IMG/VR virus record: IMGVR_UViG_3300028832_000142
Origin: an uncultured virus (IMG/VR IMGVR_UViG_3300028832_000142)
Taxonomy: Duplodnaviria > Heunggongvirae > Uroviricota > Caudoviricetes
Direction: 5' to 3' (one strand)
Length of the DNA: 64,000 bases
Shown here one piece after another: positions 4,215-57,550 of the stretch. Position 1 is the first letter of the stretch; each line of letters starts with the position of its first letter. The notes beneath the pieces are model-generated. The model was not told where the DNA came from and did not search any database. It saw nothing but the letters and a program-made list of their open reading frames with translations. Position numbers and translations under genes: made by a program.

Positions 4215-4236
4215 CTCACCATAAGCGATGAAAAAA
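4215..4236 (-). promoter_or_regulatory. Phage promoter-like element (variant) upstream of the nuclease-RNAP operon
   Basis: Minus strand TTTTCA-TCGCT-TATGGT-GA matches the TTTWCA-N5-TATAAT family. Confidence 0.55.
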
Positions 4237-5457
4237 CTACATACTGTATTTTTCGGAAAATTCGTCATCGTCAAGCTCCTCAACAAAACGATGCTCGTTA
4301 AAATCCTTCTTTTGAGTAAGACATTTTCTTATCGCCTTGTCTATATATGCATCTGACATAAGGTGAAAGTAATATAAATTTTTGAAAGGAGAGTTCATTC
4401 TTTCAGTACGACCAGCAGCTTGTGTCATCATTTTGTAAGAATGGTTCTGACTATAAAATATAATTGTATCCGTTAAAGTACAGTTCCATCCTTCTGATCC
4501 TGATGCATAGTGTACTAAATATACCCAAGTATCTGTATTAGGTATAACTTTATGTTTATGACCATTCCATTCGGCATAAATATACCCATTGTCTTCGCAC
4601 ATCTGTCGTAGTAGTTCTAATTCATAATCAAAGTTGTAGAATATAATGCATCTGAAATGTTCATCTATAATTTTAGCAGTCTCCTTTATTCTGCTAGGAT
4701 CACTATTCACAACTCTTCGTAAAGCTTGACTTAATCCAGATGCATCTGCTATCGGTTCCTCTTTCCATGGATTCCATCTATTTTTTAAAATATCCATGTA
4801 CAATTCTTTATCATAGGATGTCTTAACATCTATATGATGTTTACTTATACCATTTTCAAAACTCATCAAAACTAATATTTCATTTATACATTTTTCCAAA
4901 TGCGTAGTATTAACAAAATGGTCTATTACAGGAAATTGCATAAATGGTCTATAAACAACATGTTTCTTAATAAACTCAGTACGATTTTTAAAATATCCAT
5001 TAGCTATTAATACTGGTACATAATCCATATAAGAATCCCCTGGTGTTGCACTTAACAATATCCAATCATTCTTTTTGGCTATTGTTATAAAAGTTTTAGA
5101 CCATTTACCAGAACCCACAACTCTCTGCTCGTCAAATATAAAGAAACAATCTCTAACATCTTTATATTTCTCAATGTTATTCCAAGAATCAACAATTACA
5201 TTCATATGATCGTTTGGAATATCAAACCAGCTACATTCTGCTTCCCATTCGTTAGTGTCTCTTTTTCTAGCAGTTGTTATAATATATAAATCACACCAAG
5301 TTGTAGGGCAATCTAATGGATTGACTTTGCCATCGAGAACCTTTGTATAAAAATATAATAGAGAAGTTCTAGACTTGCCAGTACCGACTCCACCAACTAA
5401 GATGGAGCCAGTACGTAATTTCTCAACGGCAAGAATTTGATGTTCTGATAATATCAA
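4237..5457 (-). CDS. SF2 (SNF2/DEAD-like) DNA helicase
   Basis: Walker A GGVGTGKS, FDEQ, LLSATPG, GSEGWN and QAAGRTER motifs. Confidence 0.88.
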   Translation of the reverse strand: MILSEHQILAVEKLRTGSILVGGVGTGKSRTSLLYFYTKVLDGKVNPLDCPTTWCDLYIITTARKRDTNEWEAECSWFDIPNDHMNVIVDSWNNIEKYKDVRDCFFIFDEQRVVGSGKWSKTFITIAKKNDWILLSATPGDSYMDYVPVLIANGYFKNRTEFIKKHVVYRPFMQFPVIDHFVNTTHLEKCINEILVLMSFENGISKHHIDVKTSYDKELYMDILKNRWNPWKEEPIADASGLSQALRRVVNSDPSRIKETAKIIDEHFRCIIFYNFDYELELLRQMCEDNGYIYAEWNGHKHKVIPNTDTWVYLVHYASGSEGWNCTLTDTIIFYSQNHSYKMMTQAAGRTERMNSPFKNLYYFHLMSDAYIDKAIRKCLTQKKDFNEHRFVEELDDDEFSEKYSM

Positions 5458-5972
5458 TCTTCGTCTTCTTCGTCATCGACAATATTCTGAGCAGAATCCG
5501 GAACGTCATAATATCTGTCCTCAAATTCATCTTCGACTATTGTTACATAAAGAGTCTTAAGATATGCTGTTACGCCAGAACGTCCCTGAATATTATTATA
5601 CTCACGAGGATTGATAGCAATATCAAACTTCTCTATTTCAGCCCAATCCAAAGTGTTAATACTTTCTTCATCAAGCTGTGTCTTACCTTTCTTTGTCACA
5701 AGAACAATTTTAGGTGGACGAAGTCTCTCTCCAGATCTGCTATAATACTTAAGTTTTACCTGAACATAAGGAACTGGATCTTCTTCTTCATCTCTAGGCT
5801 TAAGATATCTTATATTAAATCCATCAGCCTTCATTTCGTCAGCAACTTCAGGATTGAGAAGAAGACAAAAGTTTCTATCTCCTTCTGCATTATACTTTCC
5901 AGCTTTACCTGCAAAGTTGCGGAACCTCATGTTCCTACCATCAACATCCATAAATTTAATAAGCTCAGCCAT
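5454..5972 (-). CDS. Putative single-stranded DNA-binding protein
   Basis: FRNFAG..YN.EGDRNF, AYLKTLYV, acidic C-terminal tail; lies between polymerase and helicase. Confidence 0.7.
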   Translation of the reverse strand: MAELIKFMDVDGRNMRFRNFAGKAGKYNAEGDRNFCLLLNPEVADEMKADGFNIRYLKPRDEEEDPVPYVQVKLKYYSRSGERLRPPKIVLVTKKGKTQLDEESINTLDWAEIEKFDIAINPREYNNIQGRSGVTAYLKTLYVTIVEDEFEDRYYDVPDSAQNIVDDEEDED

Positions 5973-5994
5973 TTCTTTTTCCTCCTTCTGTTTT

Positions 5995-8900
5995 TTAGGC
6001 TACCAGCTGTTCTGTATTCCAAGGTGGATCATCATCTGCACCGACATACGAATTCATAAAATCGTCTCCAGGTGATGTGTCCATAGGAATCAAATAATTA
6101 CATGGAGCAGGATCGACGAGCCACTCGAACGATCCATACTCCTGACATGCTGCGACAGCATTGTCTGCTAACTTAACAAAATAACTCATATCTATATCAT
6201 CCATCATGTCATTATTCTTAACAACATCAGCTTCAAGCCATTTATATCCTTTAGCCCCAGTTGCCGAATAATACTTTCCGTCTTTTTCTCTACAAAGATC
6301 TGCTCCACCACAACCTTTCTTGATAGGACAGAACGATCCAACTTTACCGACAAAGACATAATTATGTTCATCTTTGTCTAAACCTTCGTTATAATCTAAA
6401 TATAATGATGAGCTTACTGACTTTGTCTGACACAAATCACTAAACTCCAAATCTTCATGACTAAACAATGTCTTAAAGACATAAGGTTCTGCAAACTGAG
6501 CTCCAGTTGCAGTCCACTCTCCAACTGTACCATCTTTATTCAAATATCTAGCAATATAGACGGCATCATTAACTAAACACATTTTGTCATAAGTTGCTTC
6601 ATGTTCAAATGTATATCCATATCTCTTACCAAACTCCATGACAAAATCAACAATATCCTGATCCATATTAGGAATCTTAATAGAATCTGTCTTAATATGA
6701 GCAACTGTATATCCTTTTGCTCTAACAGCTTCAGCAAGATCCACCATAAATAATGCACCACGCTTAGCAACTATATTATCCTTATTACGTACATCACGGA
6801 AAGGATTCTCAAACTTAGCAGCTGTCAAACCATATACTGAATTGATAGCTGTCTTCAACGCATTACTCAACTGTTTAGAAGTTATCTCTCCATTAATAGC
6901 TTTTTCAACATATTTGTCGAGCTTACCGTCAAACGCGTCGTGAATCAACTGCCAATCTTCATGTTTAATGTCAACACGACCATCAACTAAATCTGCAAGT
7001 CTTTCTGTATACGGACCAAATATATATTCGGTCAACATGCTATGAGGATGCATAGATGCTACATCCAGTAACGCAATCATTCCATACATACCTGGAATGG
7101 CTTCTACGAATCCGCCTTCACCTACTTCGATTCCTTTATAAATAGACTTACCATGATCAAAAGAATATCCAGGAAAATATGGCAATAACGAATCTGTGTT
7201 CTCGCTCCACCATTTCATCATCTCTGGAAATCTATCCCAAAGAAACTTCTTCATATCTTCAGGAAGCCATTTGACCGGTTTGCTTAAATCTCTATATTGA
7301 AAGACTGTTTGTGGATGTTTATTACCACCAAATATAATTTTTGTTGTATGCTGATTTGTTGTGTCATTTACAGACAATCCGGAAAGATCACTAAGAATTT
7401 GTCTAGCAATCCAATCTGACTGAAGATGATTAAATACTATCTCAGTACTTTCAACATCATTACAACAATATCTAGCTACCTGATCCCATAATTCTTCAGG
7501 AACCGGTTGATCCCAAGGCAATTCATTCTCTACGTGACTTATACCAAGTTCGATCTCCCATTTCTTAAGACCTTTCTTATTTCCTGACGAACTAAAATCA
7601 TACACATCTGTGTAACTCAAATTATATGCATTACTGAACATACAGTTAGCACTATCATTTATTATCTTCTGACTAAGATCATACAACTCATGAATAGAAT
7701 ATCCCTGCATTCTTGCATAGCAAACATGATTATCATATCGACGATTATTAAAACCTATCATACGATAATTCTCAAAAATATCCTGCAATAACTTTCCTTC
7801 CGGATTGATCAATATCTTACAATCATACCCAATCGGCTTATACACAAATATAAATAGATTAGGAAAGACTTCTATATCAAAGAAAGCTATTTCAGAATCA
7901 GGATCATATTGTCCACGTTTTACTTCTTCACCATTTGAAGTATCGACGTCACTCATAAAATGCATTTCATTTACAAGTTTAACACAATACTCTGCATGAT
8001 TACTACTATTGTTAGCAAATGCCAAAATCTTCGGACGTAGATCCGTGACATCATACTGAATATCATTCTTATAAGCATCTTCAAGAACTTTATAAATATA
8101 ATCTATAGATGGCTTAGTTCCAGGATGATACTCTTTTCTAAGATTCTTTTCAATAATTGTCCTGATGGCTTTCTCATTCTTCAAGACAAATTCCTCTACC
8201 ATATTTGCTCCTTTCTCCTTCTTTGGTAGCCCTGAATTAATAGTTGCTATAGGTAAATTGACACATTGGGTTAACTTCCTTCTCAATGAAGCATTACCTG
8301 TAAAAACTTTTACTTCAATATCATCATCAAACTTATTATTTAACTCACTAACATCACCATCATAAATATAATGTAGATGTATACCTTCACCAGACTTACT
8401 CAACTCAGCATATGTAGGTGGCCATGATGCTGCTGCCTTGGCGTTCAATTCGAAAGACTTCTTTCCCGTTTCTGGATCTTTAATATCAAAATCTATCACT
8501 ATATGATTCTCAGGCATAAGAACATAATGTAATCTTGTAGGATCTATATTAACTAATCTTGTTCTACAATTCTCCCATTTACAAGAAGGAACACCTGAAT
8601 CATTCGCATATTGTGCTAATAAATCGTTATTATCGTTATCAAAATATGTTTTCTCAACTGACCCAAACTTTAACCATGTTTTTATTGGTTCTTCATCAAT
8701 ATTATTTATTATTCCGATCTTATTAAACTTAAAACCTGAATAATAATTTCTAACATGATGACCTTCGTCATCCCTAGCTTCCGGTAAATATCTTGAAAAA
8801 TAATCTTTAAACTCTATCTTAAATTTAAGTCTATCAAGTCTATACTTCATATCACTAAGATCACAATATCTCGTATATGTATTCCAAGCATTACTCAAAG

Positions 8901-10023
8901 TTGTACCATCATTCTTGTCAAGAAAATCAACCCAACATTCCTCTACAAAATTGTACAGACGGTTAGTTGCTCTGATCATCTTAATAGGATAATACTTATC
9001 ATAATATCTTGGATTCTCTTTATAAACCTGAAGACATTTCCATGCAATAGCGCCATGCTCAAATTTGATACTATCTATTAATCTAAAATAATCTGAAGCA
9101 CTAAACACTTGTCCAGTAGGTTCGATATCTATTATTCTTCTTAATAGACCAGATCTTGCATCTGTAATATATACTTCTCTATTACTGCCTGCAAATATAA
9201 TAGTATTAAATTTAGCTTTATAAATCTTCTTATGCTTTTCATTAATAAGCATAGGTTCATGTGATACTATACTATTAAGTCTAACGTTTGTATCTATATG
9301 ACTTAAATCTGTATCATCTTGAATCGCTACTAATGGATTCTCACTCAAAGGCTCTAATGCAAAGGATGCGGACGCATTTCCTAATGCTTCTACATCTATC
9401 GTACTACAATATCCAGGAAACATGTCTCTTATTATTTGCATAATCGTAGACTTACCAGTACCAGCATCACCTACAAATATAAAAAACTTCTGAAGATTCT
9501 TAGATCCACCACTTACTATAGCACCTATTGCATATTCAATCTTTCTTTTCTCTTCTGGAGAATATAGTCTATCTGTCAATTCGTCCCAAGCCGAAGTATC
9601 TCCGGGTTCTAAAGGATAATCTAATCTGATAGAAGAATAACTATCACGATTTGTAGTACTATTTGAGAAAACTACGCTACTATTCAACCACTTAAAATTA
9701 TCACTGGTCTGTTCTTTACACCAATGATTAAAGTCATCTATAGCCTTTGTAGAAGAATATCTCAAATATTTGGTATAAATATCAATGCCAGAGTTCCCGA
9801 ACTTATCAGATTTTAACTCTTCTTCCTTCTTTTTTAACTCTTTATCAATTAATTCCACAACTCTATACCTATCTTGGGACCAAATATTGTTTTCTTCGTC
9901 CCAAATAGCATAAAAAGCTTGTCCTTTGATCATAATATCCTTAAAACCGCCTATTGCATACTCAGGATATACCATAATCTTCTTTGAGGACATATATTTT
10001 ATGGCTACATTGAAAAAATCCAT
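5995..10023 (-). CDS. Fused SF3 (D5-like) helicase / AEP primase / family-B-like DNA polymerase with exonuclease
   Basis: GDAGTGKS Walker A; VIDFD and SKSGEGIHLHY primase motifs; FFDIEVF exonuclease; LDVASMHP, KTAINSVYG and KTDS polymerase motifs. Confidence 0.85.
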   Translation of the reverse strand: MDFFNVAIKYMSSKKIMVYPEYAIGGFKDIMIKGQAFYAIWDEENNIWSQDRYRVVELIDKELKKKEEELKSDKFGNSGIDIYTKYLRYSSTKAIDDFNHWCKEQTSDNFKWLNSSVVFSNSTTNRDSYSSIRLDYPLEPGDTSAWDELTDRLYSPEEKRKIEYAIGAIVSGGSKNLQKFFIFVGDAGTGKSTIMQIIRDMFPGYCSTIDVEALGNASASFALEPLSENPLVAIQDDTDLSHIDTNVRLNSIVSHEPMLINEKHKKIYKAKFNTIIFAGSNREVYITDARSGLLRRIIDIEPTGQVFSASDYFRLIDSIKFEHGAIAWKCLQVYKENPRYYDKYYPIKMIRATNRLYNFVEECWVDFLDKNDGTTLSNAWNTYTRYCDLSDMKYRLDRLKFKIEFKDYFSRYLPEARDDEGHHVRNYYSGFKFNKIGIINNIDEEPIKTWLKFGSVEKTYFDNDNNDLLAQYANDSGVPSCKWENCRTRLVNIDPTRLHYVLMPENHIVIDFDIKDPETGKKSFELNAKAAASWPPTYAELSKSGEGIHLHYIYDGDVSELNNKFDDDIEVKVFTGNASLRRKLTQCVNLPIATINSGLPKKEKGANMVEEFVLKNEKAIRTIIEKNLRKEYHPGTKPSIDYIYKVLEDAYKNDIQYDVTDLRPKILAFANNSSNHAEYCVKLVNEMHFMSDVDTSNGEEVKRGQYDPDSEIAFFDIEVFPNLFIFVYKPIGYDCKILINPEGKLLQDIFENYRMIGFNNRRYDNHVCYARMQGYSIHELYDLSQKIINDSANCMFSNAYNLSYTDVYDFSSSGNKKGLKKWEIELGISHVENELPWDQPVPEELWDQVARYCCNDVESTEIVFNHLQSDWIARQILSDLSGLSVNDTTNQHTTKIIFGGNKHPQTVFQYRDLSKPVKWLPEDMKKFLWDRFPEMMKWWSENTDSLLPYFPGYSFDHGKSIYKGIEVGEGGFVEAIPGMYGMIALLDVASMHPHSMLTEYIFGPYTERLADLVDGRVDIKHEDWQLIHDAFDGKLDKYVEKAINGEITSKQLSNALKTAINSVYGLTAAKFENPFRDVRNKDNIVAKRGALFMVDLAEAVRAKGYTVAHIKTDSIKIPNMDQDIVDFVMEFGKRYGYTFEHEATYDKMCLVNDAVYIARYLNKDGTVGEWTATGAQFAEPYVFKTLFSHEDLEFSDLCQTKSVSSSLYLDYNEGLDKDEHNYVFVGKVGSFCPIKKGCGGADLCREKDGKYYSATGAKGYKWLEADVVKNNDMMDDIDMSYFVKLADNAVAACQEYGSFEWLVDPAPCNYLIPMDTSPGDDFMNSYVGADDDPPWNTEQLVA

Positions 10024-10039
10024 AAAATCTCCTTTCTTT

Positions 10040-10310
10040 TCAAGATTTGTCCACATTTTTGGAAAATAATTTTTCTATATTTTTTTTTTTTCAAGTAAAT
10101 TTAAAAAAAAAGTGGGATTTTTGTGACAAAATAAGAAAATTGACAAATTTCGTCCGTACGCACCATAAAAATTGTCCACATTTTTCCACAAAATCCACAT
10201 TTTTATTTCAAAATTTATAAATTTTGCATCCAAATCGCAGCTTGACTCCATAAATCTGTGGAAGTTGTGGACACGTCTCCGAACAGACTTAACTCCCCAT
10301 ACATCCACAT
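10040..10310. other. Candidate replication origin: TCCACA iterons plus AT-rich tract
   Basis: TTGTCCACA (10047, 10172), TTTTCCACA (10182), AAATCCACA (10191), inverted copies near 10257-10274, poly-T/poly-A tract 10070-10111, directly upstream of the replicase. Confidence 0.4.
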
Positions 10311-10712
10311 ATCTACTATTTCGTACACACAATGATCGTCCGTAACCCTTCTATCCAATTCTAAATTACTAATGAACATCTTCATAAGCTTACTAACTTT
10401 CCAATTTAACACATCTCTACATAATCTATTCGAAAAACCGACCAAAACCTCCAAAACAGAGGGTGTAGACGGAAAAATATATTCATCGTATTCATCAATT
10501 TCGTCAGGCATATAACCCAACTCATCACTCAAATAATACTTTCGTATCTCAATACCATTATACATGGTGTTTTCGTCCATCCTATTAAACCAAATATAAT
10601 CTATATTATGTAAAATCTTTGCCAATTCACGATATTTATCAGCCCCATCAAAACCCAAATTAAATAAGAATTCAAAATATTCTCTTTTTGTGTACCTACG
10701 TTTTCCACTCAT
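10215..10712 (-). CDS. Phage hypothetical protein
   Basis: 165-aa ORF with RBS, co-oriented. Confidence 0.7.
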   Translation of the reverse strand: MSGKRRYTKREYFEFLFNLGFDGADKYRELAKILHNIDYIWFNRMDENTMYNGIEIRKYYLSDELGYMPDEIDEYDEYIFPSTPSVLEVLVGFSNRLCRDVLNWKVSKLMKMFISNLELDRRVTDDHCVYEIVDMWMYGELSLFGDVSTTSTDLWSQAAIWMQNL

Positions 10713-10742
10713 ATAACATTACCTTTACTCCTCTCTAAAAAT

Positions 10743-10768
10743 TATAAGGGAGACAACGCTCCCTTATA
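10743..10768 (-). terminator. Intrinsic terminator
   Basis: TATAAGGGAG/CTCCCTTATA stem followed by a T tract on the minus strand. Confidence 0.6.
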
Positions 10769-11007
10769 AAGCTATTCCAGAAACATTTTACGATATCTCT
10801 GGTATTTTTCGTTTTCTTCTTTCTCTTTCTTTTCGTCTCTTTTCACTTCAAGCCACTGCTCAAAGTGATTTAATCCAGTTAATATAATTCCTCCGACTAT
10901 TATCGGAAGAACAAATAAAATAAATCCTATTACCCAATCATCCATTTTGGGTTCTCCTTTCTTTTTATTGATACGACTTTATGTCGCTCACTATAAGGAG
11001 TGAAATA

Positions 11008-11181
11008 TCAATCTTTTTTATCTTTATCAATAGACACCAGCATGCCAAGTATCTTATCTGCTGCCGTATTCATTCCGTCAATATAACCCTGACGATATCC
11101 TGCTCTAAAATCATCAGATTTAGTATTTATATCTTTTGGTTCCTGCCACTCATATCTACCAGATTTTTTCTCATCGCCCAT
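11008..11181 (-). CDS. 57-aa small protein starting MGDEKKSGRYEW (not in ORF track)
   Basis: Translated by hand; AGGAGG RBS 10 nt upstream; stop abuts the promoter element at 10988-11007. Confidence 0.65.
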   Translation of the reverse strand: MGDEKKSGRYEWQEPKDINTKSDDFRAGYRQGYIDGMNTAADKILGMLVSIDKDKKD

Positions 11182-11378
11182 TATTCAAGATCCTCCTTCA
11201 TAGTTTTTAATATTTTTATTAATAAGAAAACAAACATCAATATTACACCAGGTATAATTACGTCCCCAACAATAAGCCACGGCAATAACTGCCCAACAAA
11301 AGTACCATTATCGGAAACAGAAACATCGCTGCTATTAGCAAGAATATAATACATACCCATACCTCCGTTTCGTCAGAT

Positions 11379-11753
11379 TCACTCATCTTTTTCCTCCTGA
11401 TCAATATTAGCTTTAGCTCTCATACCACGTATGTAGCCATGCTCGACATTAGCATTAATCTCTCCTCCACAGGCAGCATAGCCTGCCAGATCAACGAATG
11501 AATCGCCTGTACCGCCACCATTCTTTATTCTTGCTATTTTCATAAGTCCCATCATCATGGCTACATCTGTAGGAGATATTTCAGGTATAGTGTCTCTGCT
11601 TTCATTTATGTCTGAATGACGATACGGTAAACCCAAATATGAATTCCACAAATCTGCAATCAGCTGGAAATTGCTTTCCGGTGTGCCATAATCCTGTTCA
11701 CGCTGACCACATACACATTTCTTTGCGGCGTCTAGAATCTCTGATCTAGTCAT
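11379..11753 (-). CDS. DUF6378-like phage protein
   Basis: R.QDYG.PE.NF..IA.LW and K.AR...DSFVDLAGYAACG pattern. Confidence 0.75.
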   Translation of the reverse strand: MTRSEILDAAKKCVCGQREQDYGTPESNFQLIADLWNSYLGLPYRHSDINESRDTIPEISPTDVAMMMGLMKIARIKNGGGTGDSFVDLAGYAACGGEINANVEHGYIRGMRAKANIDQEEKDE

Positions 11754-12022
11754 TTTATTTCCTCCCGGCTACTCTCCAATTCCTGCAAGTGCTTGTCTAT
11801 AATCTCCAAAAACATCTTATAAGCATCATAATTTGGCATATAAAAGGCAGGTTTGCTGAATAGATCATTTATTTCCTGCTTTATCTCACCCCACGCTTCA
11901 AGGCTTGTGATTGCCATTTTCACAGCCTCTTTTATCTCTGGCATATCCTCTACGCCCATAGCAACAACAGGCATCCATTTATTTACTGCATCATTTATTG
12001 TCATTGTCCTGTACCTCCCCAA
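11750..12022 (-). CDS. Hypothetical protein
   Basis: ORF in a translationally coupled series; exact start uncertain. Confidence 0.55.
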   Translation of the reverse strand: MGRYRTMTINDAVNKWMPVVAMGVEDMPEIKEAVKMAITSLEAWGEIKQEINDLFSKPAFYMPNYDAYKMFLEIIDKHLQELESSREEIK

Positions 12023-12123
12023 TCTCCACGCACTCGCCTATATCATTCTGCAAGTAAATCTTGCCATCCTTGACGTAGGCTTTTAGCTGACCATCTTTTA
12101 TTGCCTGTTTAATCTGTACTATG

Positions 12124-12324
12124 TCAATCATGTTGTGTTCCTCCTTTGACATATAATCTTTTTCTAAATATTTTTCGTGTCTGATAGTCCATATTAACGA
12201 GCATACTTTTGCGAATAGATGTTAATCTTTCAAGTTCTTCAATATCATTTTCTATCTTTTCGCTATTTGTATTAAATATATTTGCAATTTCATCAATAAG
12301 AGCTTTCCTTCTGTCTTTATCCAT
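12124..12324 (-). CDS. Hypothetical protein
   Basis: ORF preceded by the GAGGTACACAGC-ATG start module. Confidence 0.6.
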   Translation of the reverse strand: MDKDRRKALIDEIANIFNTNSEKIENDIEELERLTSIRKSMLVNMDYQTRKIFRKRLYVKGGTQHD

Positions 12325-12374
12325 GCTGTGTACCTCTTAACTCGGGTTTAATTCGGGTCATGCTGTGTACCCTC

Positions 12375-12542
12375 CTAAATAACGTGTTTATGCTTTGGGT
12401 TATAATCACTGTTTATTTGGTCTGCTAATTCCTTTGTGGCTTCTTTATCTACTCCGTTTTCATTAAGAACTGCAACTGACCACGTTTCATATCCAATAAC
12501 AGGAATATCTATTGCTACAACACCACGGTCAATATCATACAT
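12375..12542 (-). CDS. 55-aa hypothetical protein (MYDIDRGVVAID...)
   Basis: Translated by hand; GGAGGT RBS. Confidence 0.55.
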   Translation of the reverse strand: MYDIDRGVVAIDIPVIGYETWSVAVLNENGVDKEATKELADQINSDYNPKHKHVI

Positions 12543-12686
12543 ACTATGTACCTCCTAAACTTTAACTCATTTTTAATTCGGTTTTAATTCCGTTAAATTC
12601 AGTAAACGAATTAAACTTTTCAGCGTTAAAAAGTTAAACTCATTTTCCTTTGACTAAATTGTTGACTAATCATTGACTATCGTTGA

Positions 12687-14207: not shown

Positions 14208-14326
14208 AGTGGCCTCCTTTCAAATATAAAAAGCGTCCGTACCCTGCCTACTGAACGCCTGTGCCGCACCCGTCATTACTAAGCGCGCCCTCGTAGTACT
14301 CAACCTTACGGCACTCCAAATATCAT

Positions 14327-15905: not shown

Positions 15906-15923
15906 AGACTCACCTCCTAAAAA

Positions 15924-18604: not shown

Positions 18605-19082
18605 ACATATCACCTCCTTCATTATGAGCGGTGAAATTTGTACCTCAGGATTTTATACTGTGTATCCAGATCCTGTCTTTTTGTTACAATTGCCAGAATA
18701 TGTATCAGCTCCATTCCAAGCCAGCATATTCCGGTTACGACTAATAACGCGATTCCTAATAAAAACTTCTTAATATAATTCATAATAGACTCCTCCTTTG
18801 ACTTATACTAAAAATATGATAGGCCATGATTTCTCATGACCTATATTTGTCAATGCTGATTCTTTATCAAATTCGTGGGATCAGCTGCCACGTGATAGCC
18901 TTCACTATCATGAACGACTATTACGTCGTTATAAGTCTTTCCGAGCTGCTCTTTCAGCTCGAAAGCTCTGTTTACGTTCTTTACTATAAACTCTATTGTC
19001 TTGTTCATATAAATACCTCCTGTTAATGGTTTTTATTTTTATAGAGTTTCTCTGTCATTATAGGAGGTGAAAAAACTGTGGA

Positions 19083-21010: not shown

Positions 21011-21068
21011 AATCATACCTCCTTTTGTTTATGATGGGTCTACAGTGTCAATATATGAGGTGTAAATA

Positions 21069-23081: not shown

Positions 23082-23116
23082 ATTTTTCACCTCCTTCATA
23101 TTAAGGTGTGTAAATA

Positions 23117-24003: not shown

Positions 24004-24111
24004 TTTTGTACCCTCCTTTTATGGTTTAAAATGGTTACATTGTTTACTATCTCCGCATAATAATGCGTGTAAAAACTGTGGTTAAATATCAGTCAAAATT
24101 ATACCACAATT

Positions 24112-24933: not shown

Positions 24934-25074
24934 GATGTATTCCTCCTTCTGAAAAATATCTGAAGGTATGAATCATTCGGATTTAAACCGACCAACCTTT
25001 CGATTGCTTTCATAAGTTTTTCATATCTTCATTATAGTGTGTGAAAAATCCATAGGGGCCGAAGCCCCATGGGA

Positions 25075-25659
25075 TTATACAAGTATTCCTCTGTCTACCT
25101 CGTTATCTTCGAGGTATTTTGCCAGGGCGATCACATCGCTACCTGACAATTCATAGTCCATCTTCAACCTGCCAGTGCAGGTTGTGTCCTCCTTGTACTC
25201 TATTTCGCCGGTCTTTAACCAGCTCTTGACGAACTTATACTTCGTCAAGTCCGACGCATAAGTCGTACATTTGACTTTCGCGTCCTTATCAATTTCCGTA
25301 ACCTTGTAACCAAGATCACGAAGATCTTTGATGAGTTCGTCCCGACGTTCTGCATCGGGATCGTCATCCTCTTCTTCCTGAGCCTTTTCAGGTTCAGGCT
25401 CTTCTTTTGGCTGCTCCTTTTCAGCCTTTGTTTTGGATATGAGATCATTACACATATCCATAAACGAGGTTGTTAAATCCCCGTTTGTAAACAACTCGGC
25501 AAATCCTGCGCCGAGATCGATTACTTCCTGTTCATTGAGATCAATTCCTACCTCAACATCGTTTGAAATTTTTAAATAAATTCTCACTTGTTTAGACGGT
25601 TGTTTTAACCCCGCGGTTCCGTCTCCGCGTTTAAATGCGTGTACACTCGTACTCCGCAT
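25075..25659 (-). CDS. Acidic hypothetical protein (start uncertain)
   Basis: Long ORF; the listed ATG overlaps the promoter element, so the true start is probably downstream. Confidence 0.6.
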   Translation of the reverse strand: MRSTSVHAFKRGDGTAGLKQPSKQVRIYLKISNDVEVGIDLNEQEVIDLGAGFAELFTNGDLTTSFMDMCNDLISKTKAEKEQPKEEPEPEKAQEEEDDDPDAERRDELIKDLRDLGYKVTEIDKDAKVKCTTYASDLTKYKFVKSWLKTGEIEYKEDTTCTGRLKMDYELSGSDVIALAKYLEDNEVDRGILV

Positions 25660-25707
25660 AATAATGTGTGTAAAAACTACAGCGTCCGTAGACGCCGTAG
25701 CGGTGTT

Positions 25708-25854: not shown

Positions 25855-26178
25855 TAAATCACCTCCTCTTTTATGTATTCTATTGATTTTACCAGTCCTA
25901 AGACTGATAGTCCTAATACTATTCCGTACCAGAATCCTTTTAAAAATTCTTTCATATTGCACCTCCTTTGTTTATGTGTGCGTTATCGTTTCATTATAGC
26001 ACATGTAAAAACCGGAGGATATGAACCTCCGGCTCATATTCCTATCTTGTCATATAGATCAATACTAGTGCTGCTAGGATTCCAAAATCACCTCCTATAT
26101 AAGCTCCTGCTACTATTAATCCTACCCAAGTTAACCACTTGAATACGGCCGACTTTTTCATGTCATATCCTCCTCATA

Positions 26179-26526: not shown

Positions 26527-26612
26527 GGCATAATCCTCCTTTTTATGGTTACCATGTTTACAGTGTCAATATAATCCGTGTAAAAAGCATAGGGGCCGAA
26601 GCCCCCTGAGGA

Positions 26613-26984: not shown

Positions 26985-27070
26985 ACCTCCTGTTTATGTT
27001 AATGGGTTTACAGTGTCAATATAACACGTGTAAAAACTATAGCCCATTTAATTGAGCTATAGTAAAAAGT

Positions 27071-27439: not shown

Positions 27440-27504
27440 ATCATCACCTCCTATTATAACCCTTGTAAAAACTACAGCGTCCGTAGACGCCGTAGAATAT
27501 CTTT

Positions 27505-27789: not shown

Positions 27790-27884
27790 ACTTTTCTCCT
27801 TTCGTTTAATAATAAGTTTATAAGTGTCATTATAACCCTTGTAAAAACTATAGGGCATGAAGCCCCATAGTCTAGAGGAATTGT

Positions 27885-28202: not shown

Positions 28203-28278
28203 ATCCTTTCCTCCTTCTATTTGTATGGTCTGGTACTTCCAGACTCATAATATAAAGTGTAAAAAGCATAGCACGTGG

Positions 28279-28479: not shown

Positions 28480-28550
28480 AATATAATTCCTCCTTTAATG
28501 TTTATAAGGTTTATGTTCTCATTATAGGAGGTGAAAAAACTATAACGCCG

Positions 28551-28781: not shown

Positions 28782-28871
28782 CTTTTTCTCCTTTCGTTTA
28801 TGAGGCCTACTATATCCTCATTATAAGGAGTGAAAAAGCTATAGCGTCCGTAGACGCTATAGACTAGCAAT

Positions 28872-29150: not shown

Positions 29151-29353
29151 TTTAATTCTCCTTTCGATATATAATGTTTATGTGTCATTATAGTAGATGT
29201 AAAAAATATAATAAATGTAAAGACGGTTCTTGTTGAACCGCCAAGTCAATTGAGTTCTCTCCTCTACCCACTCAATCAAGGTATCCTGTCCTATTCCAGG
29301 CGCCAAGGTAATTCATTTTTCAGATTACCTCCCTATAATACAGTGTGAAAATA

Positions 29354-47959: not shown

Positions 47960-47972
47960 TTCTTTTTCCTCC

Positions 47973-48600: not shown

Positions 48601-48641
48601 GCTTTTACCTACCTTTCACTCTCATTTTGATGAAATGATCA

Positions 48642-50597: not shown

Positions 50598-50615
50598 TTT
50601 GATGAATCTCCTTTC

Positions 50616-51941
50616 TTACTGGATTCCTAATAATTGTTTAGCTACCGCTTCACCTATTTGCAACTTATCAGGTACCTGTTCTTCATATTCTGGAGTATTA
50701 CCAGTACCTCCATCTTCTGAAACAACAGGGAATGTTTCACCTTCCTGAGCATTTAAGTTGTTGTTACGCAATTCATTTGCTTTTGGATCATCTACCGGCT
50801 TGTATCCTATAATAGATCTGATTTCATTAGCAGAAAGAACTGCATTACGACTAAGCTTATCAGCCAGTTCAGCGACCTGACTAGCAGGAACAAGTTTAAA
50901 CGGTTGCTGGATGTACATTATTGCCTGTTTCTGTGTTATAGCCGTGGAAGTAAGGAATTTACGAGTAAACTCGTCAGCTATAGCTGAAAGCACCGGCTCT
51001 AATGTGTTGTTTCTATAGTTAAGCATCTCCTGTTCTGTTGCCGTACCATCTAAGATGGCTTTGGAGACACCTAGCTGACTGTAAAGAATGTCCATAAGGT
51101 ATTCCACTGTTTTAAGAAGATTGTTTTCCAATGATCTATTAAGCTGAATTACCTTTTCTGTTCCGTCGGTGTATGCAACACCGTATTTTGAACCAGCTAA
51201 CTGTTGTTCTATATCTTTTCTTCTCTCTTCAGCCTGCTGTTTATGTTTTTCAGAACGAATCACATAAGGAAGCTGAACAATGAGGTCTAGTTTAGAATCA
51301 GCTGCTTGTTCGTCTATGGACTCCATAAGTGACATCTTCCTAATAATCTGCTTAGCTACTGAATTTCGATCATTCATGACAGCGTAGAATGGATTTTCAA
51401 TTATAGCTACAGCTCTTTTAGGATAAACTACTTCTCGTTTACGACCGCTATCGTCGTCATAAATTTCAACTCTAACATGTTGAGGAAACCATTGTTTTAT
51501 ACGAGCAGTACGCAACTCATAAATTTTAAAAGCATCATTATAACGAATATCAACATCGGTATATGTAGGAACAACCGCGACAACACCTTCATCAAACATA
51601 GACATAACAAGATCCTGCATAAAAGCGCGACCAGTTTGATCTATATTAGCAGTCATATTAAGACATTTGTTCAATGAAGTATATAATGTGTCAACATATT
51701 GATCATTATCGTTCTTCTTCGCATGCATCAATCTGACGCCAGCAACATCTATCGCTATACGCTCATAAATAGCGGTAACGAGAGTTCGGTCAGTGCCAGA
51801 AATCGGTCTAAACTTATCCGAACGATATGAATACGATGGACCGTAGTCCAACTTATATGTCGCGGGTGAATAATCATATGTTGGATCCTGTCCTTTAAAG
51901 ACACTCCAAGCTTTTTTAACCCTATCAACTATAGATGGCAT
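50616..51941 (-). CDS. Portal protein
   Basis: IYERIAIDVA, ANIDQTGRAF, LDLIVQLPY, NEIR..IG. Confidence 0.9.
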   Translation of the reverse strand: MPSIVDRVKKAWSVFKGQDPTYDYSPATYKLDYGPSYSYRSDKFRPISGTDRTLVTAIYERIAIDVAGVRLMHAKKNDNDQYVDTLYTSLNKCLNMTANIDQTGRAFMQDLVMSMFDEGVVAVVPTYTDVDIRYNDAFKIYELRTARIKQWFPQHVRVEIYDDDSGRKREVVYPKRAVAIIENPFYAVMNDRNSVAKQIIRKMSLMESIDEQAADSKLDLIVQLPYVIRSEKHKQQAEERRKDIEQQLAGSKYGVAYTDGTEKVIQLNRSLENNLLKTVEYLMDILYSQLGVSKAILDGTATEQEMLNYRNNTLEPVLSAIADEFTRKFLTSTAITQKQAIMYIQQPFKLVPASQVAELADKLSRNAVLSANEIRSIIGYKPVDDPKANELRNNNLNAQEGETFPVVSEDGGTGNTPEYEEQVPDKLQIGEAVAKQLLGIQ

Positions 51942-52032
51942 CGGCCTCTCCTCTCATTTTGATGAAACTGCTACAAACGAAACAATACTGTCGAGATTAT
52001 GCATCGTTTTGTATAAGTTTCGTATTAAACAG

Positions 52033-52587
52033 TTAACGGCCACCTCTGCGATAAGCACGTTCTGCTTTACGAGCCTCGTGAAGCTTTTTATTACGTCTCT
52101 TTTCTTCTTTACGAGCTGCTGACTTTGCTACTACAGATGCAGCAGTTTTAAATCCAGTCTGTTCTTTAGATTTTTTAACAATGTCAGACATAGAACTACC
52201 TTTAACAGGTTTTCTTCCAGATTCTTTTCGCTCTTTTAAAACATTATTTGCTATATTTGCGGTGTTGTTTTCATAATATGTACCATGTCCACTTGGTACA
52301 TGCCTGCTACGATCATTCTCAGCTGTTTCATTGTTAGAAATTCTTCTAAGCTGGCTATTACTCAATTTATCAAGTTTACGAGCCATTTTAGCATCAAGTC
52401 TATTTAATATATCGCTTTCTTTAGACTCCATATAACCAGCTCCGAGTCTTCTAGGACTATCCGGACGTTGCATGAATTTAAGTCCAGCTTTTCTTTTATG
52501 CCATTTCATTCCGGGAATACCATAATGCATAAGGCTATTCTGATGATCATGAAAAGCAGCCGAATACTCTTTAAAATCTGTACTCAT
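52033..52587 (-). CDS. DUF7211-like basic protein
   Basis: DFKEYSAAFHDHQNSLMHYGIPGMKW leader. Confidence 0.75.
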   Translation of the reverse strand: MSTDFKEYSAAFHDHQNSLMHYGIPGMKWHKRKAGLKFMQRPDSPRRLGAGYMESKESDILNRLDAKMARKLDKLSNSQLRRISNNETAENDRSRHVPSGHGTYYENNTANIANNVLKERKESGRKPVKGSSMSDIVKKSKEQTGFKTAASVVAKSAARKEEKRRNKKLHEARKAERAYRRGGR

Positions 52588-52988
52588 GCTTTACTCCTTT
52601 CTGCGTAAGTACCTCTCTTATACTTACCGCGTCTTTTCTTCTTTTTAGCAAGAAGCTCTTCTTTCGTGGGTTCTCCCTTCGGAGCAATTTTCTTGCCTGA
52701 CAACTTAGCGTTTTTGAGAGAGCCAGTTATCTCGCTATGTTTCTTGGGAACAGCGTCATAAATAGCCTTAGCTAACTGCACGCCAAGCTGTCCCCTACCA
52801 GCTGAGTAAGCAATATCAGATGCTGCCCTTTCTTTAGCCAGTCTATCTTCTTTTTTCTTCTGCTCTTCAGTCTTCTGGCCATTCTTTTTCCTCTTGCTAG
52901 GATCCCATTTCATACCGGGGACACCATAATGCATAAGATCATTCTGGTGATCGTGGAAGGCAGCCGAATATTCTCTGAAATCATTCAT
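52584..52988 (-). CDS. DUF7211-like basic protein
   Basis: DFREYSAAFHDHQNDLMHYGVPGMKW leader. Confidence 0.75.
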   Translation of the reverse strand: MNDFREYSAAFHDHQNDLMHYGVPGMKWDPSKRKKNGQKTEEQKKKEDRLAKERAASDIAYSAGRGQLGVQLAKAIYDAVPKKHSEITGSLKNAKLSGKKIAPKGEPTKEELLAKKKKRRGKYKRGTYAERSKA

Positions 52989-52993
52989 TGTAA

Positions 52994-53425
52994 CTACCTC
53001 CTCTTTTTCTTTCTAAACTTTTTAAACGTGTTTTCGATTTTTCCAAGAATCGAATCATTGTATAATTTTTTAACATAATTAGCGTCACTAATTGCAGAAA
53101 CTCTATCTTTCTTATATTTAGTTGCTAAATCATTGTAATAGTCTTTTTCTGTTCCACGTTTACGATTGCCATAAACATCTTCATAATGAACTTCTGTCTT
53201 TTTATTAAGATAGGGACTATTAGCTGTTTTTCTAGCTTCTATTTCATTTTTAGCAGCGCTTAATCCACCTCTTCGTATTAAAGATTCTTCTTTCTTAAGA
53301 CCTATACCAGTTATTTCCTGAAGACGGCGTTTATAATGGTGCCATTTCATACCCTTTACACCGTAATGCATGAGTTCGTTCTGGTGATCATAAAAAGCGG
53401 CAGAATATTCTTTGAAATCAGTCAT
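52994..53425 (-). CDS. DUF7211-like basic protein
   Basis: DFKEYSAAFYDHQNELMHYGVKGMKW leader. Confidence 0.75.
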   Translation of the reverse strand: MTDFKEYSAAFYDHQNELMHYGVKGMKWHHYKRRLQEITGIGLKKEESLIRRGGLSAAKNEIEARKTANSPYLNKKTEVHYEDVYGNRKRGTEKDYYNDLATKYKKDRVSAISDANYVKKLYNDSILGKIENTFKKFRKKKRR

Positions 53426-53426
53426 A

Positions 53427-53741
53427 TTAAATACCTCCATTTGGAGCGGATACAGGTAATTTTTTTACCTGGTCCATAAGTTTCTCGGCTGTGCCATTTC
53501 CTCCCATTCCTCTGTAAGGAACATACAAATAATTATACAAATCCTCATAATCACTTGTAGAAATCCAGCCTTGTTCTAAGTAGTGTTCGCAAAGATACTT
53601 TATACGATCATGACCTAATCCCAAAAGCATTTGAAACTTTGCGTCTTTCTTCTCACTAATCTTCTGCATTAGTGACCAGAATCCGTTACTAGCAAAAACT
53701 GCACAAATGACTGTCACTGCTAGTTCAATCCAATGTTGCAT
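53427..53741 (-). CDS. Holin-associated membrane protein
   Basis: N-terminal TM helix; LLGLGHDRI and Y..MGGNG. Confidence 0.65.
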   Translation of the reverse strand: MQHWIELAVTVICAVFASNGFWSLMQKISEKKDAKFQMLLGLGHDRIKYLCEHYLEQGWISTSDYEDLYNYLYVPYRGMGGNGTAEKLMDQVKKLPVSAPNGGI

Positions 53742-53754
53742 CGTAGTGTCCTCC

Positions 53755-54090
53755 TCACATCACCTTAAGATTGATAATGCCTTTCTCTTTCATTTTGATG
53801 ATTCTGTCTCGATCGACATCACCATCAAGTTTAAGACCTAAAAGAGCAGAGCCACTATCAGCTTCAGTGTCCACTACAACCGATCCTTCAGTTGTAACTT
53901 CGGGAAGACCTGTCGCAAAACTTGTAAGTATGGAAATTATGCCGGCTACGATTGAGATTGATATGAGCTGGACCCAATCAACATCTTTTATAGCCATTCC
54001 TACCGTTAGCATCGATAACGCAGTCTGAGCCATTGTTCTTAAAGCTCTTATCAAAGCTGCCACGAGCCAATCTTTACCTGTTCGTTTCAT
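53755..54090 (-). CDS. Holin (r1t-like)
   Basis: W..AALIRALRT.AQTA...S.LTS..TGLPEV. Confidence 0.85.
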   Translation of the reverse strand: MKRTGKDWLVAALIRALRTMAQTALSMLTVGMAIKDVDWVQLISISIVAGIISILTSFATGLPEVTTEGSVVVDTEADSGSALLGLKLDGDVDRDRIIKMKEKGIINLKVM

Positions 54091-54103
54091 ACAGATCACC
54101 TCC

Positions 54104-54571
54104 TTATCTCTTTATTTTAGAGCCTATATAGTAACCTGCCGGTATTGTAGCCCACAAAGGCAATATTACAGGGACTAAAACACCAGCAACTGCACCAACT
54201 GTAGCACCGGTTTTAGCGTTGTTAAACTGAGCATATGTTAAAGGTTTTTTACCATACTCCTTAAGATACTTAGCGGAGAAACGTTTAGCTCGCTTAGCGG
54301 AAGCTACTATCTCACGTTCAGTTCTTGTATGACTCATACGAGAGTATTCCTTACGAAGATCGGCAGAGGTGCTTAACACTCTGTTGAGTATACGATTATC
54401 GTAACTCATTACTTTGTCGGTGGCTTCTGAAGCTAATTCTTTAAGAGATTTTCGCTTCTTACCCTCCGGAGTCAGAGTACCATCTGGATTTTGATACCGT
54501 CTCACACCCCAGTGCATTCCCCTTACCCCATAGTGGTAAAGTTGTGAATAATTATTAACACCACTCATCAC
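54104..54571 (-). CDS. DUF7211-like protein with C-terminal hydrophobic segment
   Basis: LYHYGVRGMHWGVRRYQNPDGTLT. Confidence 0.75.
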   Translation of the reverse strand: MMSGVNNYSQLYHYGVRGMHWGVRRYQNPDGTLTPEGKKRKSLKELASEATDKVMSYDNRILNRVLSTSADLRKEYSRMSHTRTEREIVASAKRAKRFSAKYLKEYGKKPLTYAQFNNAKTGATVGAVAGVLVPVILPLWATIPAGYYIGSKIKR

Positions 54572-55278
54572 TTTTTATTCTTCTTTTTACCACCGCTAAG
54601 TTTAACGCCATATTTTTTCTCAAGTTCTTGTTTTCTAAGTTCTTTCTGAACTTCAAATTCAAGATTCTTCAATTCTTCACGCTGTTTTTCAAGCGCTTCT
54701 TGCTTCTGCTGTGCTTTCCTCTCTTTAGCATTAAAATCAAGAATAGTATTTGTAGGAAGGCCCATCTTCGAACGTATAAACTTACCGGCATCACTATTTA
54801 TAAACCGTATACCATTATTAAGAACGTCTCCATATGATAACATGGTGTCTGCTAATTGTTTTCCTTTACGAAGTTTATTATGATTAAGATCTTTAACATT
54901 ATCTATAAGACGAATACGATCTATAGCTTTACTTATTTCATCGTTTGAAAACATATCTTGATACTTTAAAATCTGATTAGGATCTTTAAGTATCTCAGAA
55001 CGCTTTTTATAGAATTTTTCACGCTTTTTAGCTTCTCTAAGTTTAGCACGTTCTACTCGCTTAGCTATTTTTCGTTCTCTCTTGGTAAGATTATTAGATA
55101 TTCGTTTTTTACCGAGTTCTGTAAGAGTACCATCAGGATTTTGATAACGTCTTACACCCCATTTCATACCAAGAATACCATAATGCATAAGATCAGGTTT
55201 ATTAATCAAATCAAGATTGCGAATCTCGTCAATGGGTGGTTTGTTAACGAGACCGTAATAATTAATTTCATCAGGCAT
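54568..55278 (-). CDS. DUF7211-like basic protein
   Basis: LMHYGILGMKWGVRRYQNPDGTLT. Confidence 0.75.
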   Translation of the reverse strand: MPDEINYYGLVNKPPIDEIRNLDLINKPDLMHYGILGMKWGVRRYQNPDGTLTELGKKRISNNLTKRERKIAKRVERAKLREAKKREKFYKKRSEILKDPNQILKYQDMFSNDEISKAIDRIRLIDNVKDLNHNKLRKGKQLADTMLSYGDVLNNGIRFINSDAGKFIRSKMGLPTNTILDFNAKERKAQQKQEALEKQREELKNLEFEVQKELRKQELEKKYGVKLSGGKKKNKK

Positions 55279-55347
55279 GGTAACTTACCTCCCACTCTTA
55301 TTTTGATGAAATGAGGAGCCTCGATTTGAGACTCCTCAGATAATTTG

Positions 55348-57354: not shown

Positions 57355-57376
57355 AATTTTCACCTCCTATAATGAG
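57355..57376 (+). promoter_or_regulatory. Phage promoter-like element, plus orientation
   Basis: TTTTCA-CCTCC-TATAAT-GAG, same core as the copies near 19056 and 28520. Confidence 0.7.
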
Positions 57377-57420
57377 AATATAGACTATACATTATTACCA
57401 TAAAAAGGAGGTATAAATAT

Positions 57421-57516
57421 ATGAGTATAGTTATAAGTGAATTATTAAAAGTTATAATTGGTAATATGATCGGAACGGCATTAATGTCGGCGATCAAAAA
57501 TAACTTTTTAGTATAG
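57421..57516 (+). CDS. 31-aa hydrophobic peptide MSIVISELLKVIIGNMIGTALMSAIKNNFLV
   Basis: AAGGAGGT RBS, upstream promoter, downstream hairpin at 57510-57530. Confidence 0.6.
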   Translation: MSIVISELLKVIIGNMIGTALMSAIKNNFLV

Positions 57517-57528
57517 GCATCGCCTATA

Positions 57529-57550
57529 CTTTTTCACCCCTTATAATGAG
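57529..57550 (+). promoter_or_regulatory. Phage promoter-like element, plus orientation
   Basis: TTTTCA-CCCCT-TATAAT-GAG fused to the T tract of the preceding hairpin. Confidence 0.7.

Follow-up and report, generated by a model that had tools for sequence, protein, structure and literature searches.

A compact repeated element as the candidate promoter of a phage-encoded single-polypeptide two-barrel RNA polymerase

Introduction

Phage promoters that are read by phage polymerases are already known from T7, N4, AR9 and phiKZ, and P23-45. The promoter of the YonO-type enzymes, which are single-chain two-barrel RNA polymerases (RNAPs), is still an open question. A candidate is described here from an uncultured virus of the Caudoviricetes (IMG/VR record IMGVR_UViG_3300028832_000142), of which one stretch of 64,000 nucleotides (nt), the window, was analysed. 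The window carries many copies of a short bipartite element, TTTWCA-N5-TATAAT, and encodes a predicted two-barrel RNAP in an open reading frame (ORF) of 929 amino acids (aa). An earlier sequence-only reading had listed 21 copies of the element and taken it for a compact phage-specific promoter read by the encoded RNAP. The comparisons below support that proposal, to which a probability of about 70% is assigned.

T7-type promoters occupy about 17 base pairs (bp) before the start, with a TATA-like stretch directly ahead of the +1 purine. They occur in many copies per genome, each promoter class is read by one enzyme, and the middle 5 bp carry the specificity. In a relative of the window, Lactococcus phage 1706, the copies read ...CACTATAGTAG. 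The polymerase here, however, has a two-barrel and not a right-hand fold, and the middle 5 bp of the element are variable. Promoters of the sigma-70/sigma-A class share the TATAAT hexamer with the element, and their TTGACA box resembles TTTACA, but their spacer is 16-18 bp and not 5 bp, the A at position 2 of the hexamer is unconserved in the relatives of the window, and the start here is inferred beside the hexamer. The promoters of phage N4 depend on a short hairpin, with a stem of 5-7 bp and a 3-nt loop, and are read by a giant T7-like virion RNAP.

The P23-45 group of Thermus phages offers a further parallel. These are siphoviruses with a polymerase of the two-barrel lineage carrying the DFDGD motif, and a repeated phage-specific motif lies upstream of their early genes and is found only in the relatives that carry the enzyme. 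Delivery of the enzyme with the virion solves the problem of first transcription, and structures of the gp64 family from this group are among the Foldseek matches of the 929-aa protein. Unlike the P23-45 case, the enzyme in the window is single and free-standing, has helix-turn-helix (HTH) domains at both ends and is not fused to the tape measure; the motif differs, and the window case is known from sequence alone.

YonO of the Bacillus prophage SPbeta is also a single-polypeptide two-barrel DNA-dependent RNAP from a phage of a Gram-positive host, but it is reported to serve a single late operon, from one start site and with a promoter sequence not yet defined (PMC5467207). YonO and the 929-aa protein belong to the same branch, resembling RNA-dependent RNA polymerases, according to the available text of Koert et al. 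(10.1101/842583). They differ in that no BLAST-level similarity connects them, SPbeta not being among the 250 records listed. The promoter of the AR9 non-virion polymerase, AACA-N6-TA, is short and bipartite and lacks a -35 element; it too combines an ACA-containing box, a fixed short gap and a TA step at the start, and its reader is a phage-encoded member of the cellular-RNAP lineage (PMC9209446, in the part available). AR9 differs in that its enzyme has several subunits, one of them sigma-like, recognises the template strand and requires uracil in the DNA. Its gap has 6 bases and not 5, and the box lies nearer the start.

The repeated element and its placement

The exact sequence TTTWCA-N5-TATAAT occurs 10 times in the window, 8 times on the minus and twice on the plus strand, against 0.13 expected, and 0 of 100 shuffled sequences reached 10. 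When one mismatch was allowed, 21 matches were found against 3.67 expected and a shuffle maximum of 8. Common flanks and gene context are seen in 18 of the 21, of which 16 lie on the minus strand (19057-29351) and two on the plus strand (57357, 57531); the remaining three (plus strand 1435, 4096 and 11242) resemble chance background. Four weaker copies, at 4215, 10988, 18618 and 23095, have two or more mismatches yet retain the invariant positions and the 5-base spacer, bringing the family to 22. All 21 places of the sequence-only reading were kept, 17 as matches with at most one mismatch and the other four as these weaker copies with the invariant bases; it had missed one member of a tandem pair, at 29203-29221, so that its copy number rises to 22.

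Alignment of the 22 sites showed T2, T3, C5, A6, A13 and T17 in 22/22. T12 and T14 are present in 21/22, T1 in 20/22, G18 in 19/22, A19 in 17/22 and C7 in 16/22. The spacer is 5 bases long in every copy and variable in sequence, as had been claimed, and its G+C content is 58% compared to 37% for the window. A weakly kept extension, CTATAGTT, precedes the box. No conserved -35 box was found: positions -39 to -8 of the alignment are unconserved apart from a hairpin arm. The 5 bp in 22/22, with nothing conserved 16-18 bp upstream, fit the earlier statement that the spacing is incompatible with sigma-70. Sites of the sigma-70 type are not enriched in the window (36 against 39.5 in shuffles; 68 against 72.8 in 1-18000). 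A scan with a position weight matrix (PWM) built from the 22 sites returned no further convincing copy in the window, a scan that is circular by construction as it rescans the sites it was built from. In de novo gapped-word counting the signal was swamped by base composition.

The genes of the window lie nearly all on the minus strand. In the direction of transcription they begin with terminase, portal, capsid, a 2646-aa tape measure, tail genes and lysin; a series of small genes follows, and then a fused primase-polymerase, helicase, endonuclease, exonuclease, the 929-aa ORF and a 97-aa ORF. Of the 22 copies of the element, 20 fall within 4216-29351 on the minus strand, and the other two are on the plus strand at 57.3-57.5 kb. 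The minus strand of the late-gene region (29352-64000, 34 kb) has 0 copies. Every copy is placed between a stop codon and the next start and is oriented into the next gene, in agreement with the original description. Twenty copies were tested for a downstream gene. In 14 of them the start codon of an ORF of 40 aa or more, equipped with a Shine-Dalgarno sequence, lies 13-53 bases past the hexamer, and in three more a shorter ORF has its Shine-Dalgarno sequence and an ATG within 13-36 bases. The observation of a repeated motif at gene boundaries is thus confirmed and extended.

The first copy of the early region, TTTTCAcactgTATTATag (29333..29351, minus strand, at most one mismatch), lies 3 nt past the lysin stop codon, and its Shine-Dalgarno sequence begins 1 nt past the hexamer. 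Next on the minus strand is the tandem pair, whose upstream partner TTTACAtttatTATATTtt (29203..29221, at most one mismatch) is without the GA and scores below 10 bits in the PWM scan, and whose downstream partner TTTACAtctacTATAATga (29185..29203) is exact. Farther along the minus strand are the exact copies TTTTCActcctTATAATga (28818..28836), TTTTCAcctccTATAATga (28519..28537), TTTACAagggtTATAATga (27827..27845), TTTACAagggtTATAATag (27451..27469, with AGGAGG starting at the first base past the hexamer), TTTACAtgtgcTATAATga (25991..26009) and TTTTCAcacacTATAATga (25029..25047), and copies with at most one mismatch: TTTACActttaTATTATga (28245..28263), TTTACAcgtgtTATATTga (27016..27034), TTTACAcggatTATATTga (26566..26584), TTTACAcacatTATTATgc (25656..25674), TTTACAcgcatTATTATgc (24055..24073) and TTTACAcctcaTATATTga (21048..21066). 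The sequence TTTTCAcctccTATAATga recurs as an exact match at 19055..19073 (minus strand, 34.3 bits). The weaker copies, all on the minus strand, are TTTACAcacctTAATATga (23096..23114), in which a Shine-Dalgarno sequence follows immediately after the hexamer, ATTTCAccgctCATAATga (18619..18637), in which it starts 2 nt past the hexamer, ATTTCActcctTATAGTga (10988..11006, 22.4 bits), which has its start codon 44 nt downstream, and TTTTCAtcgctTATGGTga (4216..4234, 26.9 bits), which lies 3 nt past the helicase stop and upstream of the operon of endonuclease, exonuclease and RNAP. On the plus strand there are two exact copies, a third occurrence of TTTTCAcctccTATAATga (57357..57375) before a 31-aa hydrophobic ORF (57421-57516), and TTTTCAcccctTATAATga (57531..57549) before a 70-aa ORF (57590-57802).

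Occurrence in phages with and without the polymerase

Fourteen polymerase-bearing genomes, from phages of Firmicutes and Actinobacteria, were examined, and each has the motif on its gene strand, though two of them (the metagenomic relative G003 and RosaAsantewaa) only weakly. A common grammar is seen: a W-W-C-A box, exactly five variable bases, and an A+T-rich hexamer ending in AT and followed by a purine. A generic regular expression for the whole family was not enriched over controls (28 against 15 in the window, 18 against 16 in 1706), and lineage-specific patterns were therefore used.

In two IMG/VR relatives the pattern of the window itself is enriched, with 24 matches against 1 in the reversed control in G001, whose polymerase is 88% identical, and 20 against 5 in reversed controls in G002 (55% identical). 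Lactococcus phage 1706 has 11 exact copies of TTTACA-N5-TATAGT, all on the gene strand, and Faecalibacterium phage FP_oengus has 11 copies of WnCR-N5-CTTTATG, in fuller form GACGCGAAAAAwwCA-N5-CTTTAT-GG. Three more distant metagenomic relatives have their own versions: 10 copies of ...TTACR-N5-nGTTAT-GG in G005, 8 copies of CTCGCA-N5-TTTkCA-N5-CTTAAT-AG in G004, and 2 weak copies of ...AAAACA-N5-TCTTAT-AG in G003. The motif is also seen in a fragment, G006. Among actinobacterial phages, exact WWCA-N5-TATAAT-R occurs 9 times in Circum (Arthrobacter), 10 times in Gravy (Gordonia), 15 times in ReqiPepy6 (Rhodococcus), 4 times in Count (Microbacterium), twice in BitterVaud1 (Bifidobacterium) and once in RosaAsantewaa (Streptomyces). 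Every copy in these six is on the gene strand; the count was 0 both for the opposite strand and for reversed controls.

Phages that lack the polymerase gave a different result. The Lactococcus phages sk1, c2, TP901-1 and 949 have 0 exact copies, the motif being absent or not enriched, and 0 copies were found in Rhodococcus phages ReqiDocB7 and ReqiPine5, mycobacteriophage L5 and Streptomyces phage phiC31, which have no polymerase homolog. The contrast between phages with and without an RNAP homolog, which the sequence-only reading had proposed to draw, came out as the motif in 14/14 carriers and exact copies in 0/8 non-carriers. In SPbeta, which encodes YonO, the motif has 8 matches against 19 in controls, and no shared repeated motif was found. 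A blind scan of 2.9 million IMG/VR viral contigs gave mostly single matches among the 80 matches listed. Only two contigs in that list had multiple matches, and both are family members: one is a known relative, and the other is a fragment that encodes the family DNA polymerase and ends before the expected position of the RNA polymerase gene.

The polymerase and its operon

The 929-aa ORF (471..3260, minus strand), the proposed reader of the promoter, matches phrog_4291 ('RNA-dependent RNA polymerase') with an E value of 3.8e-252. It carries GADFDGD, the metal-binding loop of the cellular-RNAP lineage, at residues 520-526, and this motif is invariant in 9/9 aligned homologs. HTH matches are located at about residues 80-107 and 900-927. 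An AlphaFold model built on the homolog alignment had a mean confidence (pLDDT) of 71.5 and a predicted template modelling score (pTM) of 0.44. Foldseek with this model returned QDE-1 (2j7n, E 6e-7), the plant RDR2 (7w82, 2e-5) and the P23-45-group polymerases gp64 (8f72, 1e-4) and gp96 (8h2m, 2e-3), together with a crAss-like phage polymerase and bacterial beta-prime, at TM-scores of only 0.2-0.3. By sequence, the whole protein gave nothing significant against solved structures. The encoded RNAP of the sequence-only reading stands, but it is to be described as a two-barrel polymerase of the YonO/QDE-1 type, with HTH domains at both ends and a predicted activity.

Two assignments were tried and rejected. 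The N-terminal HTH matches Pfam Sigma70_r4_2 (E 1.9e-7), but generic HTH families score better and it cannot therefore be called a sigma domain (region 4); its best solved relative by sequence is SpoIIID (E 0.016). A second polymerase fused to the tape measure, as in P23-45, was dismissed because there is no DFDGD in the window outside the 929-aa ORF, the tape measure included.

Homologs at 30-40% identity are present in at least 250 deposited phage records. Hosts by organism name, among the matches listed, are Arthrobacter (95), Gordonia (55), Streptomyces (54), Lactococcus (13), gut 'Siphovirus' contigs (12) and others, and the proteins are mostly annotated just as 'helix-turn-helix DNA-binding protein'. 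In the available sections of Koert et al. (10.1101/842583) the protein is already proposed as a putative RNA polymerase and as the signature gene of a supercluster of Actinobacteria and Firmicutes phages.

The copy ending at 4234 is followed on the minus strand by the endonuclease gene (3758-4087), the exonuclease gene (3262-3864), the polymerase gene and, last in the operon, the gene for a 97-aa protein of phrog_4303 (158..451) to which no function is assigned. A small gene directly after the RNAP gene is also present in the gene tables of 1706, ReqiPoco6, Circum and FP_oengus. G001 shares, without a single change, the 42-nt block in which the 4234 copy lies, but differs in the leader, and a copy also precedes the endonuclease-exonuclease-polymerase block in Circum and FP_oengus. 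This conservation supports the earlier suggestion that the copy at 4215 would drive the RNAP operon itself.

Two further features concern this gene. Residues 8-23 of the polymerase, HxGxxxxSGRYxxGSG, are invariant in 9/9 homologs that are otherwise 38-88% identical, and residues 1-24 are predicted to be disordered (pLDDT below 50) despite the invariant motif; the extreme N-terminus may be a docking or packaging peptide. In 1706 the polymerase gene, orf75, is preceded by a 450-bp gap (2600-3080) in which there are 3-4 iteron-like repeats, namely CTATCACGAAAAAACTTCGGGAAAACTTCGGGATTG and its variants, but no copy of the element, and Circum has GTGGCCAA repeats at the corresponding place. The repeat region may be an origin or a packaging region.

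The hexamer, the start site and host sigma-A

The second-position A of the hexamer is essential for recognition of a -10 box by sigma-70, and transcription from such a box starts 6-8 nt downstream of it. The hexamers of three relatives, CTTTAT in FP_oengus, CTTAAT in G004 and nGTTAT (including TGTTAT) in G005, have T or G and not A as the second base, which argues that the hexamer is not a sigma-70 -10 box. T3, A5, T6 and the following purine are kept across all three. The position of the ribosome binding site is also relevant. The Shine-Dalgarno sequence begins 0-2 nt past the hexamer in 4/22 copies of the window, and 9 of the 11 copies in 1706 are directly followed by AGAAAGAAGG. A start 6-8 nt downstream would remove it, so that a start at or near the end of the hexamer is indicated. 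Thus TATAAT is probably not a -10 box but a region of melting and initiation beside the start site. With the start at the last base of the hexamer or adjacent to it, the 17 bases of the element would span about -17 to -1. Hairpins at the 5' end of the transcript were considered as another pointer to the start and dropped, as 5/22 leaders fold from the first base after the hexamer compared to 285/2000 random 26-mers, which is no significant difference.

These data bear directly on the alternative that survives best, though it is unlikely: that the copies are '-10 only' promoters of host sigma-A, in which WWCA is an accessory contact or the site of a phage activator replacing the -35 contact. 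MotA/AsiA of T4 is the model for such an activator. The perfect or near-perfect TATAAT in the window and the actinophages fits this explanation, and so does the location of the sites before early-looking genes, which most phages express with the host polymerase; the integrase of FP_oengus points to host-driven expression somewhere in that genome. It is opposed by the 5-bp spacing with nothing conserved at 16-18 bp, the absence of a TGn extended -10 from the spacers of the copies, the hexamers without A at position 2 and the abutting Shine-Dalgarno sequences in both the window and 1706. Furthermore, the grammar is constant between hosts as far apart as Lactococcus and Rhodococcus, yet other phages of these hosts lack it or show no enrichment. 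The only DNA-binding or transcription protein in the conserved core of Koert et al. (10.1101/842583, in the portion available) is the HTH-bearing polymerase-like protein.

Terminator hairpins

A hairpin of -8 kcal/mol or stronger, ending no more than 3 nt before the box, precedes 12/22 copies, and its T-run is the TTT of the box. The sequence-only account had omitted these hairpins. They are located at 57510-57530 before the 57531 copy and, on the minus strand, at 29222-29242 before the upstream partner of the tandem pair, and at 28837-28865, 28538-28565, 28266-28284, 27846-27872, 27472-27495, 27036-27063, 26591-26606, 26010-26034, 25676-25701 and 25050-25072 before the copies at 28818, 28519, 28245, 27827, 27451, 27016, 26566, 25991, 25656 and 25029, respectively. 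Stems of 7-12 bp and loops of 4-7 nt followed by a T-run are ordinary terminator anatomy. The region 18000-30500 has 38 terminator-like sites as against 5.9 in shuffles. Ten of the 22 copies are without such a hairpin, and in 1706, FP_oengus and Circum the distance from terminator to box is variable; for these two reasons the hairpins are read as intrinsic terminators of the preceding gene, which here are fused to the candidate promoter. By this fusion many small genes become separate transcription units.

The hairpins also enter into the alternative that the repeats are not promoters but operator-like sites, at which a phage HTH regulator controls read-through. The 'stoperators' of Cluster A mycobacteriophages provide the comparison. 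In its favour, some 20 asymmetric sites occupy short intergenic gaps in a single orientation, and the window does encode HTH proteins; the binder would possibly be the HTH domains of the 929-aa protein or a Cro/CI-like protein (22074-22847). The explanation is nevertheless improbable. The 12 copies just past a terminator hairpin are at places where a fresh start is needed, and an A+T-rich hexamer and purine at a fixed short distance before a Shine-Dalgarno sequence are promoter-like. In addition the Cro/CI-like protein is outside the conserved core as given in the available part of Koert et al. (10.1101/842583).

Least probable is that hairpin and box form one structured-DNA unit in the style of the N4 virion polymerase, or an RNA-level processing or antitermination element: hairpins with partly conserved arms (CTATAG...) do abut 12 of the boxes, but the 10 hairpin-less copies, the variable terminator distance in the three relatives, the ordinary terminator dimensions, the lack of a T7-like or N4-like polymerase gene in the window and the lack of an Rfam match all speak against it. 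An N4-type hairpin promoter proper was rejected on the same 12/22 count, on the 4-7-nt loops with their T-run, and because no giant T7-like polymerase is encoded, the 2646-aa ORF being the tape measure protein.

The hairpins at 24000-29300 and at 57510-57530 have common arm sequences (CTATAG/CTGTAG ... CTATAG), and the stems near 25676-25701 and 27472-27495 are near-identical. The 3' arm coincides with the weakly kept upstream extension of the element, and one sequence may serve as both terminator and promoter extension.

A model for early transcription

In the favoured model, the two-barrel RNAP that the phage itself encodes as a single polypeptide uses (tAGTT)TTTWCA-N5-TATAAT-GA as its promoter. 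The enzyme would bind the double-stranded DNA at the invariant WWCA box, one of the fused HTH domains being a plausible means of docking, and would melt the A+T-rich hexamer 5 bp downstream. Synthesis would begin on the conserved purine after the hexamer or no more than about 2 nt from it, so that the 17 bases would correspond roughly to -17 to -1 and not to a -35/-10 pair. Some 20 such promoters would divide the early and replication regions into small, mostly single-gene units, many of them shielded by an intrinsic terminator with a T-run that merges into the box. The endonuclease-exonuclease-polymerase operon would itself be driven by one copy, giving positive feedback. A search for RNA runs covering 24000-29400 listed none, which counts neither for nor against the model.

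If the earliest-looking genes depend on these sites, either the virion must bring the enzyme or a host-type promoter must supply the first of it. The odds that it is carried in the virion and delivered with the DNA are about even; otherwise the host polymerase would produce a small amount of the enzyme at the outset. In the GenBank record of phage 1706 (EU081845) the depositors label the homolog orf75 'structural protein', a label that the notes of ReqiPepy6 and ReqiPoco6 repeat. It hints at virion delivery, as a depositor's label only. The most complete version of the model, in which a virion-delivered, factor-independent polymerase uses a fused HTH as a built-in sigma on the WWCA box and starts at the purine, is tentative and rather doubtful as a whole.

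Several points weigh against assigning the element to the phage polymerase. First, the perfect TATAAT in the window, Circum and several actinophages could be used by the primary sigma factor of the host, and the window itself conforms to the A2 and T6 of the sigma-70 hexamer (A13 and T17 in 22/22). Second, the lineage-specific patterns were written after inspecting the same sequences, and G003 has just 2 convincing copies and RosaAsantewaa 1. Third, polymerase and motif are co-inherited in one phage supercluster and the counts are not independent events; in related genomes the element could instead be read by a different conserved phage factor, or by host sigma-A with the aid of such a factor. 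Fourth, a sigma-A-like TTGAAA-17-TATATT is present at 4133-4105 in the leader of the polymerase operon, such sites being at chance frequency, and FP_oengus carries an integrase; induction of its prophage without a virion enzyme means that some host-driven expression of the polymerase must exist there. Finally, the structural model is only moderately confident (pTM 0.44), and the RNA polymerase activity of the family is a prediction only, according to the part of Koert et al. (10.1101/842583) available.

Additional sequence features

A second motif, TTTCATCAAAATRRKAG, has 5 gene-strand copies against 0.21 expected, in 46917-55311 of the window on the minus strand. The copies, at 46917, 48619, 50591, 51951 and 55295, lie directly upstream of the starts of the portal, capsid and neighbouring structural genes or overlap these starts. 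The motif is also conserved in G001 and has the TTTCA start, though not the hexamer, in common with the early motif. It may represent a class of late promoters or else a signal for translation.

Signals near the start codons were also seen. ATAAAC occurs no more than 40 nt past the hexamer in 9/22 copies, with about 0.02 expected per site, often as CATAAAC a few bases ahead of the Shine-Dalgarno sequence. In upstream regions of FP_oengus, G004 and G005 a short signal, (C)TGATATTT or TTATATTTT, stands directly ahead of many Shine-Dalgarno sequences or start codons, often right behind a terminator T-run; it occurs in several relatives, and the version at 46817 of the window is GTTATATTTTTCAGAAGGAGG.

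The two small plus-strand ORFs behind the 57.3-57.5 kb copies are antisense to the late-gene strand and have no family match. G001 has three plus-strand copies of the element at the equivalent place. Paralogous genes at 16954-17967 and 24112-24933 both match phrog_2152 (E 2e-19 and 2e-35), and FP_oengus has three DUF6353 genes in the region matching these paralogs. Rfam found 0 families and ARAGORN 0 tRNAs in the window.

Significance

A description of the motif was not found in full-text literature searches, whose scope leaves outside Garneau et al. 2008 and Summer et al. 2011, papers that may describe such repeats. Nor is it described in the available parts of 10.1101/842583 (where 'promoter' occurs 0 times), PMC13313380 and PMC7302621. 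The analysis yields a precise and testable candidate of 19-25 bp with natural variants from at least eight lineages. If the most complete version of the model is true, this would be the first promoter defined for the YonO-like branch, and a grammar of about 19 bp would be used by at least 250 phages of Actinobacteria and Firmicutes that have the enzyme. It would amount to a T7-like 'one protein, one promoter' system of independent origin within the cellular-RNAP lineage. Confirmation of the candidate would allow hundreds of genomes to be re-annotated and would provide a compact orthogonal polymerase-promoter pair for Gram-positive bacteria. It would also explain how genes of the supercluster are expressed independently of the host sigma factor, and account for the wide span of hosts in which this polymerase family is found.

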